From an uncultured bacterium (GTDB taxonomy: Bacteria; Krumholzibacteriota; Krumholzibacteriia; JACNKJ01): a DNA stretch of 64,000 nt. The stretch lies in the NCBI GenBank assembly GCA_963695095.1, contig CAVOFT010000001.1, positions 2,944,001 through 3,008,000 of the forward strand, read 5' to 3'. A program made the position numbers and the translations under genes. Positions 19,122 through 43,517 of the stretch are shown one piece after another; position 1 is the first letter of the stretch, and each line of letters starts with the position of its first letter. The notes beneath the pieces were generated by a model that did no database searches, was not told the DNA's origin, and saw only the letters and a list, made by a program, of their open reading frames with translations.

Positions 19122-19312
19122 CCCCACCTCCCGGATAGGTTCCGAAGCTCCTGCTGCTCCATTTTGACAGCGTGGCCGGCGTCGATCAACCCCGATCCGC
19201 GTTGCCGATCTTCGAATCGATGATTCCGGTAAGCGATGCTGAATCCTCCGGCCGTCGGTGGGCATCGAAACCGCACTGGAAGCAAATCCCCGATTCCGAA
19301 CCGGAGGTCCCC

Positions 19313-20387
19313 ATGCGTCGCTCCCTATCGCCCTTGGTGCTGGGCCTGGCCTTGCTCGCCACGGCCAGCCAGGCGATCGCCGTTCCCCGCACCATGCTCT
19401 TCGAGAAGTTCACGAACACCGGTTGACCCGCCTGCGCATTGGCGGAGCCAATCTTCTTGCAGTTCGTCGACGATCACCCGACCGACACGGTGGCCATCCT
19501 CTGGCATGCGAACTTCCCCTACCCGGTCGATCCCTTCTACACCCACAACATCACGGACAACCAGGGCCGCATCGATTGGTATGCGATCGCCAGCGTGCCC
19601 AGGATCAAGGTGGACGGGATCACGTCCTCGACCAGCTACTGCCGGGATGACCACCAGCTACAACAATCGCCTGGCGGTGCCGACCGATCTCAGCCTCGAG
19701 ATCACGGGCAGCTGGGACCCGCAGACCCGCGCCGTCTCCGTGACCGCGACGGCGACGACGACGAGCGCTCTCACCAACGATTACGTGCTGCACATCGTGC
19801 TCACCGAGAGCGAGGTCTACTACGAGGCCACGAACGGCATCGACTGGCACGAGCACACGATGCGCGACGCTCTGCCGAGCTTCGCCGGCTCGCCGGTCAC
19901 CTTCAGCGGCGACTTCCCGCAGACGGCCGTGGTCACGGCCGACTTCACGCTGCCCATGGGCGCGCCGCCGCACGAGTACCGGCCCGAGTTCTGCAAGATC
20001 GTCTGCTTCGTGCAGCAGGTGAGCACGAATTCGGGCTTCCGCGAGGTGCAGCAGGCGGCCGCCGTCGCGCTCACTGATCTTGCGCAGACCCCGGTGGCCG
20101 AACTGGCCGCGGCGCCCAGCCTGGGGCAGCCCTACCCGAACCCCTTCAACCCCGAGACGGCAATTCCCGTGCGGCTCGCCGCACCGGGCGATGTCGCCTT
20201 GCGGATTCTCGACGTGGCTGGACGGCGCCTGCGCACGCTGCAGGAAGGTCATCTGAGCGCCGGCAGCCATCAACTCCACTGGGACGGCCGCGATGACGCG
20301 GGCCGGCCCGTGGGCAGCGGCGTCTACCTGGCCCAGCTCATCCACGCCGGCGGTCGCGAGAGCCGCCGGCTCGTGCTCCTGAAGTAG
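19313..20387 (+). CDS. Putative secreted Omp28-like thioredoxin-fold selenoprotein (U38-P-A-C) with C-terminal FlgD-Ig-like domain; one indel near 19640
   Basis: GGAGG RBS, signal peptide, VPRTMLFEKFTNTG-TGA-PAC continues in frame into ORF 19439; Omp28-like VLTE...HEHTMR and IVCFVQ; C-terminal PNPFNP...LVLLK. Confidence 0.8.
19432..19462 (+). promoter_or_regulatory. Candidate bacterial SECIS element
   Basis: ATTGGC-GGA-GCCAAT hairpin (19438-19452) begins 11 nt after the TGA at 19424-19426; possible lower stem CTGCG/TGCAG. Confidence 0.65.
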
Positions 20388-20416
20388 ACGCAGCGATTCA
20401 ACCGGTTCAGCGAAGC

Positions 20417-20460
20417 GAAGACGCGCCGTCCTCCCTCGGGAGGCGGCGCGTCTTCTTTTC
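20417..20460 (+). terminator. Rho-independent terminator
   Basis: GAAGACGCGCCG(T)CCTCCC / GGGAGGCGGCGCGTCTTC stem followed by TTTT, between convergent genes. Confidence 0.8.
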
Positions 20461-21431: not shown

Positions 21432-23069
21432 TCAACGCGCGCGGAGGCGAAGCACCTTGACGCCGCCGCGAGCGGCAGCGTCCATTCGCTCCAACAGGTA
21501 GATGCCCGTCGGCGTGGGCCGGCCGCTTTCATCGCGACCGTCCCAGACGCCGCGCCCGCCCGGCAAGGCCAGGCGCCGGACGCAGCGGCCGCGGATATCG
21601 AAGACGGCCACGCTCGCGTCGCCGCCCCGCGCGCCGGGGGCGGCCAGGCGCAGCTCGTTCACGAAGGGCTGCGGCCACGCGACGAGCGCCGGCGCCGCGG
21701 GCAGCGGGTCCACGGCCGTCTCGTCCTCGGCCACCGCCGTGCTAAAGAGCGCCGCCGGCGCGGCGACGGGCCGGCGTTCGACCCTGCCACTGAGGTCTGC
21801 GGCTTCCAGGTAGTACTCGATCTCGGCGCCCGGCGCCTGCGCGGGCAGCCAGGCGCGCAGGCTGTCGCCGCCGATCGGCACGAGGGCGCTCAGCGCAAAG
21901 TCCGTCTCCCCCGCCAGGCGCCAGTGGAGCGCGCAGCCGGCGAGATCCAGCCCCGCCTCGCTGCGGTCGTCGACGAAGGCCGCTACGGGCCAGGCCATGG
22001 CGGCGGGAATCTCGACCGGCGGCGGCGCCGCGTCCACGCGCAGCATGCCGCGGTCGAAGATGCCCATCGCGCGGCAGTGGAGGGCGTCGTAGTAGTACCA
22101 GGAGCCCGTGAAGCCGATCACCTCGTAGCCGGGCATGGCATCGCGGTAGAGCTGCAGCGCCGGCGCATCGCCAGCGCACTGGAAGAGCGGCACCAGCACC
22201 TTCTTGCCGAGGATGAGCGCGTTCGTGTAGGCGGCCACGCCCACCCCGCCGATGGGCCCGCAGTCGACGCGCAGCACGCGCAGGGGATTGCCATAGCAGC
22301 TCGTCAGGCCGCCCAGGAGCGCGGCGTTCTGTTCCACGTAGGGCGCATCCGGGTGGCTCGGGGAGAGCTGCTTGACGATCACCGTCTCCTCGTCGAGGAA
22401 CTTCGCCACGCAGTCGATGTGCTGGATGCCGTTGCCCTCGGTGTTGGGCAGCACGACGAGTTCGTCCACGCCGCACCAGCTCGCCAGTGCGGCGCGGAAG
22501 GCCGCTTCGCTCAGGTGATCGTTCTCGCTGAGCTGGGCCTCGGAGCAGAAGGCGCGGCCATGGCCGTCCCACATGATGTTGCCGCCGGTGAGATAGAAGG
22601 GCGGCTGCCAGAGCGGCTCGCCGCCCAGGTAGGCGGCGAACTGGGCCGGCGTGTCGTCGTCCTGCTCGTAGCCCGTGGTCTCGCGCGGAATCCAGGGATA
22701 GCCATCGAACCAGGGGTCGAGGATGCCCCAATCCCCGCTCCCATCGAAGAGGCACTGCGGGCCCCAGTCCCGGCTCCAGTGCGAGTAGCTGTCGGCGATC
22801 ACCCACCGGACATTGGCCATGTTGACGCCCCAGGCCGTGAAGTTGCCCGTGGCGCCGGCGACCTGGGTGGAAAGGATGACGACGTAGAGCTTCGCGTCCT
22901 CGGCCATCTCGGCAACCAGCGAGCCCGGAATGCCCAGCGGCCAGCGGATCATGACCCCCTCCACCGGCTCCCACTCGGCGCACATGCGCACGGGGCCGGG
23001 CGGCTGGGCCGCGGCGAGGGCGGGCAAGAGCAAGCAGAGCGCAGCGGCGGCGAGACGCTGGCGCGGCAT
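21432..23069 (-). CDS. Secreted agmatine/peptidyl-arginine deiminase-family protein with C-terminal FlgD-like domain
   Basis: AEWEP, WSRDWGP, GGNIMWDG, QHIDC, YTNALI, DALHC motifs; C-terminal WPQPF...WDGRD...GIY. Confidence 0.88.
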   Translation of the reverse strand: MPRQRLAAAALCLLLPALAAAQPPGPVRMCAEWEPVEGVMIRWPLGIPGSLVAEMAEDAKLYVVILSTQVAGATGNFTAWGVNMANVRWVIADSYSHWSRDWGPQCLFDGSGDWGILDPWFDGYPWIPRETTGYEQDDDTPAQFAAYLGGEPLWQPPFYLTGGNIMWDGHGRAFCSEAQLSENDHLSEAAFRAALASWCGVDELVVLPNTEGNGIQHIDCVAKFLDEETVIVKQLSPSHPDAPYVEQNAALLGGLTSCYGNPLRVLRVDCGPIGGVGVAAYTNALILGKKVLVPLFQCAGDAPALQLYRDAMPGYEVIGFTGSWYYYDALHCRAMGIFDRGMLRVDAAPPPVEIPAAMAWPVAAFVDDRSEAGLDLAGCALHWRLAGETDFALSALVPIGGDSLRAWLPAQAPGAEIEYYLEAADLSGRVERRPVAAPAALFSTAVAEDETAVDPLPAAPALVAWPQPFVNELRLAAPGARGGDASVAVFDIRGRCVRRLALPGGRGVWDGRDESGRPTPTGIYLLERMDAAARGGVKVLRLRAR

Positions 23070-23125
23070 GGCAGCCTCCGTTATCATGCGTCGAGCGAGT
23101 ATAGCAGAATCAGGAGTGAGCCACC

Positions 23126-24139
23126 TTGGACTTCGACTTCACCGCCGACAGCAGCTCTTCGCGCCCCTTCGGCGCCGAGGCCCAGGCGCGCCTCGGCGCG
23201 GCGCGCGCGCTCGTCGTGGGCGTCGGGGCGACGGGCAGCGCGCTGGCCGAGGGCCTGGCCCGCGCGGGCATCGGCGCGCTCACGCTCGTCGATCGCGATC
23301 TCGTGGAGACGGGCAACCTCGGCCGCCAGTGTCTCTACGCACGCACGGACATCGGCCGGCCGAAGGCGGCCGCCGCCGCGGATCGCCTGGCCGCGATCAA
23401 CCCCGCGCTCGCCCTCGACGCGCGCGTCGCCGAGGCCACGCCAGAGCTGCTCGAGGCGCTCGCCCCCGGCGCCCAGCTCATCCTCGACGGCACGGACAAC
23501 TTCGCCACCCGCGCGCTGATCAACGAGCTGGCCTGCCGGGAAGCCATCCCCTGGATCTACAGCGGCGCCATCGGCGCCACCGCCCTGAGCCTGCCCATCG
23601 TGCCGGGCGAGACGGCCTGTCTGGCCTGCCTCTATCCCGAGCCGCCCGCCGCCGAGCAGGAAGAGCGCTGCGACGTGGTCGGCGTGCTGCAGGCCGCCGT
23701 GCTGCAGGCCGCGGCCTGGAGCCTGGCCGAGGCGCTCAAGCTGCTCGGCGGTCGCAGCGAGGCGCTGCGCCGCGAGCTGTGGACCGTGGATCTCTGGCGC
23801 GGGCAACAGGGGCGCCTGCGCGCCGCGCATCCGCGCGCGGGCTGCGGGGTCTGCCAGCAGCGGCGCTTCCCGTTGCTCGCGGCTTCGCGCGCGGAGCCGC
23901 GCATCGCCTTGATCTGCTCGCGCGCCGTGCAGGTAACCCCACCTGCGGGCACGCCCCCACCCGACCTCGACGCCCTCGCGCGCCGCCTGAAGGCCGCGCC
24001 CCCCGGGGCCGATGTCCTGCGCCTGACCCTGGACGGCCAATCCATCTGCGTCTTTCCCGATGGCCGATTGCGCCTCGACGGGGCGCAGGATGCCGCGCAG
24101 GCCCTCGCCGTGTACCGCAAGCTCTTCGGCGGCGGCTAG
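23126..24139 (+). CDS. ThiF/MoeB-family adenylyltransferase
   Basis: GVGATGS, VDRDLVETGNLGRQ, DGTDNF, CLAC and CGVC zinc motifs. Confidence 0.9.
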   Translation: MDFDFTADSSSSRPFGAEAQARLGAARALVVGVGATGSALAEGLARAGIGALTLVDRDLVETGNLGRQCLYARTDIGRPKAAAAADRLAAINPALALDARVAEATPELLEALAPGAQLILDGTDNFATRALINELACREAIPWIYSGAIGATALSLPIVPGETACLACLYPEPPAAEQEERCDVVGVLQAAVLQAAAWSLAEALKLLGGRSEALRRELWTVDLWRGQQGRLRAAHPRAGCGVCQQRRFPLLAASRAEPRIALICSRAVQVTPPAGTPPPDLDALARRLKAAPPGADVLRLTLDGQSICVFPDGRLRLDGAQDAAQALAVYRKLFGGG

Positions 24140-39020: not shown

Positions 39021-40218
39021 CTACTTGATGACGCCCAAATCCTTGCCCACGGCCGTGAAGGCCGCGATCGCCTTGTCCAGCTGCGCCCGGTCGTGGGCCG
39101 CGGAGATCTGCACGCGGATGCGGGCCTTGCCCTGGGGCACCACGGGGTAGAAGAAGCCGATCACGTAGATGCCCTTGGCCAGCATGGCCTCGGCGAACTG
39201 CTGGCTGAGCTTGGCGTCCCCCAGCATGATGGGCACGATGGGGTGCACGCCGGGCACGATGTCGAAGCCGGCGGCGGTCATCTTCTCGCGGAAGTACTTG
39301 GTGTTGGCCTCGGTCTTGTCGCGGAGCGCCGTGCTGGCCATGATGATCTCGAGCGTCTTGAGCGCCGCGGCGACGATGGCCGGCGCCACGGTGTTCGAGA
39401 ACAGGTAGGGCCGGCACCGCTGGCGCAGCAGGTCGATGATCTCCTGGCGCCCGGTGGTGAAGCCGCCCGAGGCGCCGCCCAGGGCCTTGCCGAGGGTGGA
39501 GGTGATCACGTCCACGCGGCCGAGCACGCCGCAGTGCTCCACGCGTGCCGCGGCCGGTCGGGCCGAAGAAGCCGGTGGCGTGGGAGTCGTCGACCATGAC
39601 CATGGCGTCGTACTTGTCGGCGAGGTCGCAGATCTTGTCGAGCTGGGCGACGGTGCCGTCCATCGAGAAGACGCCGTCGGTGGCGATCATGATGCGCTTG
39701 GCGCCGGCCGCCTTGGCCTCGTCCAGCTGGGCCTTCAGGTCGGCCATGTCGTTGTTCGCGTAGCGGTAGCGCTTGGCCTTGCAGAGGCGGATGCCGTCGA
39801 TGATCGAGGCGTGGTTGAGCGCGTCGCTGATGATCGCGTCCTCTTCGCCCAGCAGCACCTCGAAGAGGCCGCCGTTGGCGTCGAAGCAGGCGGCGTAGAG
39901 GATGGTGTCCTCGGTGCCGAAGAACTCGGCGATCTTCGCCTCGAGCTCCTTGTGGATGTCCTGGGTGCCGCAGATGAAGCGCACCGAGGACAGGCCGAAG
40001 CCGTGCGTGTCCATGCCGGCCTTGGCCGCCTCGATGATCTCGGGGTTGTTGGACAGGCCCAGGTAGTTGTTCGCGCAGAAGTTCAGCACCTCGACGCCCG
40101 TGTTGAGCTTGATGGAGGCCTTCTGGTCGCTGACGATGATCCGCTCCCGCTTGTAGAGCCCCGCGGCCTCGATCTCGGCCAGCGTGGTCTTCAGCTCGGT
40201 GCGCACTTTGTCGAACAT
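39021..40218 (-). CDS. kbl: Glycine C-acetyltransferase (2-amino-3-ketobutyrate CoA ligase); frameshift near 39542
   Basis: [53 protein letters not shown]. Confidence 0.95.
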
Positions 40219-41507: not shown

Positions 41508-43517
41508 CTACTTCAGCAAGAGCATCTTGCGGGTCTGCTCCCCGTCCGCGTGCTGGAGGCGGTAGAAGTACATGCCCGTCGCCAGGGTGTTGCCCGCGTC
41601 GTCGCGGCCGTTCCAGATGATCTCCTGCGGTCCCGCCGTCTGCGGCCCGTCCACAAGGGTCGCCACGCGGCGGCCGCTGGCGTCGAAGACCAGCAGCTTC
41701 GCGTCGCCCGCGCTGGGCAGCGTGAAGCGGATCGTCGTCTTCGGGTTGAAGGGGTTGGGCAGGTTCTGCTCGAGGCGCAGCGCGAAGGCTGCCGGCTCCT
41801 CGGGCACGCCCGTCAGATCCGGGTTCAGCCAGTTCATCGCCCGCTGCATGAGCAGCGCCCGATCCGCGGCGTTGTTGATCGCCTCGAAGCCGAAGCCCAG
41901 GTAGACGACGCGATAGGTGCCCGTGTCCGCGGCAACGGCGCCATTGTAGGTGGTGCCGTACCTGAAGATCACGTGCGCTGCCGCATCATAGGCGCTGATC
42001 GCGTCCGGGTACTCCTGGTTGTTCGCGCCGTCGCCGCCGCTGATCGTCAGCATCATGCCGTCGCTGATCGGATCGCCGGCCACGCCGTCCAGGGTGTAGT
42101 CGTTGGTGTCATCGAGCACGAAGTTGGCGTGCAGGTACTGGCGATACCAGGCCAGCACTGAGGACCCCAGCTGCGTCGCCAGCTCCCAGCCGACGTCCTG
42201 CCCGCTCACGAGGAGCGCGCCGCCGCCGTCCAGGTAGGCGCCGAGGGCGGCCCGGTCGGAGGCGTCCAGGGTCGGGAAGGCGAAGCCGACGTTCCAGACG
42301 ACGACGTCGAAGTTCGACAGCAGCGCGCCGGTCAGGGCCGCGCCGCTGCGATCCCAGATCGCGAAGCTGCGGCCGGTGCTGCCCAGCGCGGGGCCGTAGT
42401 AGCTCGACTCGAAGGTCTCGCCGCCGTCGTCGTCCACCAGCAGCACCTGCGTATCCGCCGTGATCGCCGAGTAGCGCAGCCGGCGATCGTCGGTCCGGTT
42501 GCCCTGGCTGTGGATGACCAGCTCCGCGGCGCCGCCGCCCGTTGCGCCGGTCTCGATGACGACGTTGTAGGTGGCCCGCTCGCCGGGCGCCAGCGTCACC
42601 TGGAGGGCGCTGTAGTTGCTGACGCCATCGGTGATGTAGGCGCTCCAGCTGCCGGGCAGGTCGCCGGTATCCAGGCTGAGATCGTAGGTGTCGGTGGCGT
42701 CGCCCACGTTGAACAGGGCGAAGTCGCCGAACTCATGGCTGCCGCTGGCCACCGCCACCCGGTCGCCCAGCGAGTAGTAGCGGAAGGCCCAGTCGCCGGT
42801 GGGCACCGACGTGCAGGACTGCTGCATCGCCTTGTCGCTGTCGCGCTGCAGGAAGGCGACGACGCGCATGTTGGCGGGGTTCCACAGCGGATCCATCGTG
42901 AAGTTGCCGGTCACGGTCTGCGTCTGCCCGGCCGTGTTGATGGTGACGGGCACGTCCGCGACGATGTCGCGCAGGACGTCCTGCTCGTAATCGCCGCTGT
43001 AGAGGCAGTCGTTCTCGATGATGCACACACGCACGCGCAGCGTGCTGATGTCGGCGACATCGTCCTCGAGATCGACCTTCACAGTGGCATAGGGGCTGGG
43101 GCCGAAGCTGTAGCCCGTGACTTCCATCGCCCAGGGCGTGGCGTCGGCGATGTGCGCCTGCACGATGGCATCGTAGGGCCCGCCGTCGATGACGTCGGTA
43201 CCGGCACCCACGAGCACCTCGGTGCCCATCCAGATCAGGGTGGGGAAGGCACTGACGCCGTAGTAGCTGAGACGCGCCATGCCGTCAGGGCAGCTGCCGA
43301 GACCGCCGCTTGAGCTGCTCAGGTAGCGAATGGAATTGAACTCTGTCCCGTCGTAACGGCCCGACATCACGGCCAGGCCTGCGTATGCACGCGGACAGTA
43401 GACTCACCAAGTCGCCGAGCCCATCTCGGCGATGACGGTGCGGGGCACCAGGGCGAAGGCCTGCGCGCTGATGAGCATCAGCAGCGCGGCGGCCAGGGTG
43501 ATCTGGAGACGCTTCAT
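41508..43517 (-). CDS. Putative secreted Omp28-like thioredoxin-fold selenoprotein (W-U38-V-Y-C), 669 aa, with C-terminal FlgD-Ig-like domain
   Basis: GGGAGG RBS, ATG 43517, signal peptide, VPRTVIAEMGSATW-TGA(43406-43404)-VYCP in frame with ORF 41508-43370; YGVSAFPT cis-Pro-like motif, VVAFLQ, PNPFNP...MLLLK. Confidence 0.85.
43378..43394 (-). promoter_or_regulatory. Candidate bacterial SECIS element
   Basis: Minus strand CC-GCGT-GCAT-ACGC-A-GG hairpin; core stem starts 11 nt after the in-frame TGA. Confidence 0.55.

Follow-up and report, generated by a model that had tools for sequence, protein, structure and literature searches.

Omp28-related selenoproteins with a UxxC motif are already known as a kind and are curated as NCBIfam NF045500 ('Omp28-related selenoprotein'), in which an N-terminal thioredoxin-like domain with the pattern E/D-x-F-T-x-x-x-U-x-x-C is followed by an Omp28-type region. 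A thioredoxin-like UxxC family was predicted in 2008 by Zhang and Gladyshev under the name 'hypothetical protein GOS_C', for which their report gives 74 Sec-containing and 312 Cys-containing sequences (PMC2398784). The surface protein HBP35 of P. gingivalis was reported to be secreted by the Por/type IX system (PMC3120885), and its thioredoxin activity was reported to be abolished on mutating the two active-site cysteines (PMC2907840). In our literature search, no publication was seen that links selenoproteins to Omp28, type IX secretion or Krumholzibacteriota, and Omp28, the outer membrane and T9SS are unmentioned in the main texts of deep-Sep and BSepDB.

The window analyzed here, a stretch of 64,000 nucleotides from the genome of an uncultured member of the Krumholzibacteriota, contains what is, judging from its sequence and that of its relatives, a real but mis-annotated selenoprotein gene (Table 1). 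Its product was reconstructed as a read-through protein (P0126) of 357 amino acids, with the TGA translated as U and a four-letter step at the frame break discussed below. By its profile scores this protein is a divergent, secretion-tailed member of the Omp28-related selenoprotein kind, divergent because it reached 31.6 bits along positions 38-272 of the 377 positions of NF045500, far below the cut-off of 200 bits; two intact orthologs likewise scored below it (28.3 and 33.7 bits). It shares with NF045500 the thioredoxin-like domain, the U-x-x-C pattern and the Omp28-type region that follows, but differs from that kind in having a type IX sorting domain. Compared by eye, the GOS_C sequences in supplementary file 4 of PMC2398784 resemble the window protein in a V-E-D-F-T-G-L-N-U-P-Y-C-P motif and again at a later W-H and P-x-x-x-x-N-G. 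The Pfam Omp28 profile (PF11551) matched the read-through protein across the frame break with 51.8 bits (gathering score, 34.9) and the second frame alone with 41.6 bits, while NF045500 weakly matched residues 25-107 of the first frame. The Omp28 family outer membrane lipoproteins (NF033782) are a poorer match (25.6 bits, below the cut-off of 150); unlike them, the window protein has no Cys before residue 38 and has a predicted Sec instead of Cys, and it is not a lipoprotein because its leader lacks a lipobox cysteine.

Table 1. Features of the Omp28-like selenoprotein locus, in window coordinates.
Feature	Position	Strand	Evidence or remark
Shine-Dalgarno GGAGG	19303-19307	+	5 nt upstream of ATG 19313; identical in all 4 sequences of the ortholog alignment
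Start codon and predicted Sec-type signal peptide, residues 1-23	19313..19381	+	Ends A-I-A; no lipobox Cys
First coding frame, codons 1-109 (signal peptide and thioredoxin-like domain)	19313..19639	+	Translation, ortholog alignment
In-frame TGA, predicted selenocysteine 38	19424-19426	+	Invariant in 4/4 orthologs
Motif U-P-A-C, residues 38-41	19424-19435	+	Translation
SECIS-like hairpin, 6-bp stem ATTGGC/GCCAAT, loop GGA	19438..19452 (+12 to +26 after TGA)	+	Homolog comparison
Extra T, +1 frame shift	19640	+	Single gap column in G001, G002, G007
Second coding frame, codons 110-357 and stop TAG (20385-20387)	19641..20387	+	Rest of Omp28 region and C-terminal sorting domain
Pfam Omp28 (PF11551), residues 90-252 of read-through protein	19580..20069	+	Spans frame break
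Type IX secretion type A sorting domain / FlgD Ig-like domain, residues 274-354	20133..20375	+	TIGR04183 and FlgD_ig matches
G+C-rich hairpin then TTTT, ~30 nt past stop	20416..20460	+	Likely terminator

The gene had originally been predicted from the window's letters alone, and most of that prediction can be read directly at the locus. It had placed a ribosome-binding site and an ATG at 19313, where GGAGG indeed stands upstream, and a signal peptide, which is seen in the translation as the hydrophobic leader MRRSLSPLVLGLALLATASQAIA; the leader was judged from sequence features, and similar leaders were seen in the homolog translations. The leader of this frame continues with V-P-R-T-M-L-F-E-K-F-T-N-T-G, the TGA and P-A-C, so that the predicted motif EKFTNTG-TGA-PAC is present as described. 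The hairpin was likewise found where it had been proposed, exactly 11 nt past the TGA (spacer, 19427-19437; ATTGGC, 19438-19443; GGA, 19444-19446; GCCAAT, 19447-19452). The prediction that standard annotation would truncate the gene was also borne out, since the window product is public as a 246-aa fragment and the orthologs are public as proteins of 275-314 aa that start past the TGA. Downstream of the stop codon the gene has its own terminator-like hairpin, which folded with -40 kcal/mol (z -5.0; a fold as good was given by none of 200 shuffles); it was not listed by a simple terminator scan, though the fold shows a hairpin. The next genes in the window encode a Porphyromonas-type peptidyl-arginine deiminase family protein (21435-23087, minus strand; 110 bits) and a ThiF-family protein (23126-24136, plus strand; 202 bits), neither of which has an obvious functional link to the selenoprotein gene.

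One part of the original prediction did not hold: 19313-20387 had been taken as a single reading frame, but the span of 1075 nt is not divisible by 3, and the break at 19640 had been overlooked. Past residue 109, the frame that starts at 19313 reads as Arg-rich nonsense and ends at a TGA (20075-20077), and the Omp28 part and the type IX tail sit in the frame of an open reading frame at 19236..20387. The DNA was aligned with three orthologs, two from same-genus genomes and one from a same-family genome, and exactly one extra base was found in the window only, the T at 19640 in 'CTAC T GCC'. The orthologs from the same genus each run in one frame (357 and 354 aa), with the TGA at codon 38 as the sole irregularity; across the junction, one continuous frame gives ...TSY-AGM... 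or ...SY-NSL... in the orthologs, and database relatives read ...T-Y-A-G-M-T-T.... We also considered whether 22 nt inserted between the copies of a 9-nt direct repeat, ACCAGCTAC (at 19631 and 19653), had caused the frame change, and rejected this because the ortholog lengths fit one extra base.

The break is not an isolated case in this genome. A six-frame codon-usage census of the 3.64 Mb assembly gave at least 190 same-strand switches of coding frame without a stop, defined as switches with a stop in neither frame within 75 nt, of which 154 were of the +1 type and 36 of the -1 type. They lie mostly away from homopolymer runs; examples are found at C1:1766815-1768222 and C1:631255-634969 and, in the window itself, near 39545, 44253, and 45558 on the minus strand. 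Among five high-scoring plus-strand pairs inspected, a non-random pick, three cut one Pfam domain or known architecture: Molybdopterin was split into 1-225 and 274-353 in a molybdopterin oxidoreductase, Proton_antipo_M into 1-186 and 187-293 in a complex I-type antiporter-like subunit, and the third was a tricorn-type protease. The other two gave no informative domain matches. These genome-wide breaks look like insertion-biased consensus errors. None of the public sequencing runs checked contains the stretch (best share of words, 0.10), and none of the contigs that could be placed on it covers position 19640.

Because the break is one of many in the assembly and is absent from all three orthologs, the extra T is most likely a consensus error of the two-contig assembly, and the organism itself probably has an intact gene. 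Among the alternatives the best survivor, although an unlikely one, is that a genuine selenoprotein gene of this lineage was inactivated in this strain by a real one-base insertion at 19640, in which case a product without the Omp28 and sorting domains would result. The assembly does carry an insertion that the three orthologs lack, 19640 does not lie within a homopolymer run, and other Omp28-like paralogs in the genome could compensate for the loss. Against such a pseudogene, the census, in which a molybdopterin oxidoreductase and a complex I-type subunit are also hit, points to consensus errors and not to some 190 pseudogenes; moreover, a strong coding signal and ortholog-level conservation are retained on either side of the break, and there is no second lesion.

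As for the TGA, the genome (3.64 Mb in 2 contigs) was searched for the selenocysteine machinery, which had been suggested as a check on the prediction. Profile searches identified selA (429.8 bits; cut-off, 267.9), selB (336.8 bits; cut-off, 242), and selD (342.4 bits, over its curated cut-off), and tRNA-Sec (selC) scored 71.9 bits against a gathering score of 47, so that all four components exceed their curated cut-offs. The selD gene (G000:C1:69142-70107, minus strand) has one in-frame TGA of its own and is thus probably a selenoprotein gene too. Since TGA ends 676 of the 1455 strong coding segments that reach their stop, it is an ordinary stop codon in this genome, and a reassigned code is excluded.

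Homologs were searched in six frames in 41 genomes (this genome and 40 relatives) and were found in 19, including 11 of 11 searched same-family genomes and 6 of 6 of a second family; a single genome gave as many as 8 matches, and many matches contained exactly one TGA. The homologous places were realigned by tblastn, in which a few six-frame rows were not recovered. At 47 distinct homologous sites, the codon aligned with residue 38 was TGA in 29 and TGC or TGT in 18, and no other codon was seen, which is the interchange between TGA and Cys that had been expected of homologs of a selenoprotein. A 166-nt contig of a relative (X4, ~92% alike) covering 19309-19474 has no difference listed at the TGA, which is a weak hint. 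Two other searches added little: a search for related loci with one ortholog returned 80 loci, all of which matched the C-terminal part only (query residues 188-357 at most) and were uninformative on the Sec site, and a word-indexed search with the first 125 residues of an ortholog, which is insensitive at 40% identity, returned one protein that was N-terminally truncated. From the codon comparison and the machinery, the TGA at 19424-19426 can be taken with near certainty to encode selenocysteine, and the original reading of the product as a Sec-containing redox protein fits the machinery, the interchange of TGA and Cys, and a hairpin present in the Sec forms only.

In relatives, the Omp28-like genes form tandem arrays of three or four paralogs in which Sec (TGA) and Cys forms are mixed (e.g., L055 at G004:C14:76500-82700, L049 at G009:C5:43500-49800, and L067 at G007:C60:3000-7800). 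Because these arrays mix the two forms, they suggest repeated switching between Sec and Cys after duplication. The window contains a second Omp28-like gene (41508-43517, minus strand), with an in-frame TGA at codon 38 (43404-43406). It encodes a signal peptide followed by ...A-E-M-G-S-A-T-W-U-V-Y-C-P and ~630 further residues up to a type IX tail, has a small GCGT-GCAT-ACGC hairpin from 11 nt past the TGA, and is probably another hidden selenoprotein gene.

The minimal SECIS element of E. coli fdhF begins 11 nt after the UGA and has a bulged U. The hairpin in the window resembles it in lying within the coding sequence, in starting 11 nt past the UGA, and in having G in the loop, but differs from it in its 3-nt G-G-A loop and in the lack of a bulged U; some paralogs have a loop of 5 nt instead of the 3-nt G-G-A. 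Folding of the window RNA alone did not single it out: the minimum-energy fold took another pairing (CCGCC/GGCGG), and the fold was no better than shuffles (z -0.37, 66 of 200 as good; z -0.17, 77 of 200). RNAalifold predicted no pairs from the 29 Sec homologs, and Rfam gave no meaningful family match to the hairpin.

The comparison of homologs gave a clear result. In an ungapped alignment of the 29 Sec forms, with the 6-bp helix extended by one pair, 82.3% of the cells were paired as against 64.7% in shuffles, all seven pairs were changed on both sides, and the covariation score was 0.54 (shuffles, 0.21; none of 500 reached the observed score); these shuffle figures overstate the significance because the homologs are kin. 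Two contrasts are independent of the kinship problem: pairing fell to 29-53% when the partner columns were slid as a control, and in 16 Cys forms only 22.3% of the cells in the same columns were paired (two of the 18 were dropped because their motif stood in a different register). G-G in the loop was at least 90% conserved in the Sec forms. The rival CCGCC/GGCGG pairing was hardly distinguished from shuffles (62.8% as against 59.5%; 27 of 500 shuffles reached its covariation score). The orthologs have the stem ATCGGC/GCCGAT where the window has ATTGGC/GCCAAT, a compensatory change from T:A to C:G. The backing for the hairpin thus comes from the comparison across homologs and not from the window sequence alone, and it strongly supports a SECIS-like element with a stem of 6-7 bp and a G-G-A loop, 11 nt past the UGA, that has been kept by compensatory changes.

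With these results in hand, it is very unlikely that the TGA is a true stop, with the 37 codons upstream of it forming a small or spurious open reading frame and the real start lying downstream as in the public calls. Gene callers do place the ortholog starts past the TGA, TGA is a common stop in the genome, and a TTG is available at 19439; yet a conserved ribosome-binding site, a signal peptide, and an E-x-F-T-N motif all lie upstream in the same frame, the products of a downstream start would be leaderless while keeping a secretion tail, the Cys homologs read straight through position 38, and the hairpin covaries in the TGA forms only. Low-level read-through of UGA occurs in bacteria, and the codon might on that ground be decoded as Cys or Trp by a near-cognate tRNA instead of as selenocysteine. 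We consider this just as improbable as a true stop, given the complete Sec machinery in the genome, a position-locked, covarying hairpin confined to the Sec forms, and a codon that interchanges strictly with Cys. The least credible alternative is a real break at 19640 that ribosomes overcome by +1 frameshifting as part of a genome-wide habit, an idea that takes in the excess of +1 switches and their presence in genes expected to be needed, but is at odds with the break being conserved in none of the three orthologs, with a TAC-T-GCC lacking any slippery or stop-codon context, and with 66 junctions showing no obvious common motif by eye, while an insertion-biased error of long-read assembly fits the same numbers.

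The original prediction had also assigned the product an outer-surface-type C-terminal domain, and this domain could be identified as a type IX secretion sorting domain: the read-through protein matched TIGR04183 (type A sorting domain) with 26.9 bits against a cut-off of 23, and FlgD_ig with 39.7 bits against a cut-off of 27. The genome also encodes SprA (532 bits summed) and PorU (438.4 bits), both over their cut-offs, and a PorV-like gene adjoins porU, with 112 bits and thus below its cut-off of 250. In the PorU search, the tail region of the model also matched ~40 other open frames. We infer from the sorting domain and the machinery of the genome that the product is a cargo of type IX secretion.

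An AF2 model of the read-through protein was built from an alignment of 37 rows, in which P0126 was joined by 27 translated loci (of 42) and by 9 of the 20 best-ranking database proteins. Its mean pLDDT was 88.1, and blocks near residue 110, where the two frames join, reached ~96. A strand at residues 28-34 is followed by a helix at 39-54, and in the model U38, at the N-terminus of this helix, takes the classic position of the thioredoxin CxxC motif. The best PDB match by Foldseek was HBP35 of P. gingivalis (5Y1A; E 8.2e-15, TM 0.57/0.64, 353 aligned columns), and the modeled protein shares its three domains: thioredoxin-like, beta, and type IX C-terminal. The two differ in that HBP35 has Cys where the window protein is predicted to have Sec. 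They share 12% identity in the structural alignment, and 5Y1A was not among the matches of a PDB sequence search with E up to 1. The hemin binding of HBP35 cannot be inferred for the window protein.

Taken together, the locus in all likelihood encodes an exported selenoprotein of 357 residues, the T at 19640 being most likely a consensus error and the gene probably intact in the organism. UGA-38 would code for the leading residue of a U-x-x-C redox motif, where helix 1 of the thioredoxin-like domain begins, and SelB with Sec-tRNA(Sec) would read the hairpin as a SECIS element, whereby this codon would be recoded. The N-terminal leader would then direct export through the Sec translocon, and the sorting domain would hand the protein to the type IX secretion system, which would bring it to the cell surface or the extracellular space. 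By analogy with HBP35, it may serve there as a selenol/thiol-disulfide oxidoreductase.

These findings correct the annotation of a gene of which the public call keeps a tail fragment, and of orthologs that lose the signal peptide and the active site. They add to a known selenoprotein kind a divergent secretion-tailed branch that current curated models miss, and allow Sec and Cys forms to be cleanly compared around a very small bacterial SECIS element. They also remind us that, in a near-complete assembly with so many frame breaks, other 'broken' genes should not be taken as biology without reads. We see an even chance that this bacterial family puts selenocysteine enzymes on its cell surface via type IX secretion, by means of an HBP35-shaped, secretion-tailed branch of the Omp28/GOS_C proteins with its own compact SECIS element and mixed tandem arrays of Sec and Cys forms. 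If true, this protein would be the first selenoprotein to be described as a cargo of type IX secretion, and would imply a selenium-based redox chemistry outside the cell.
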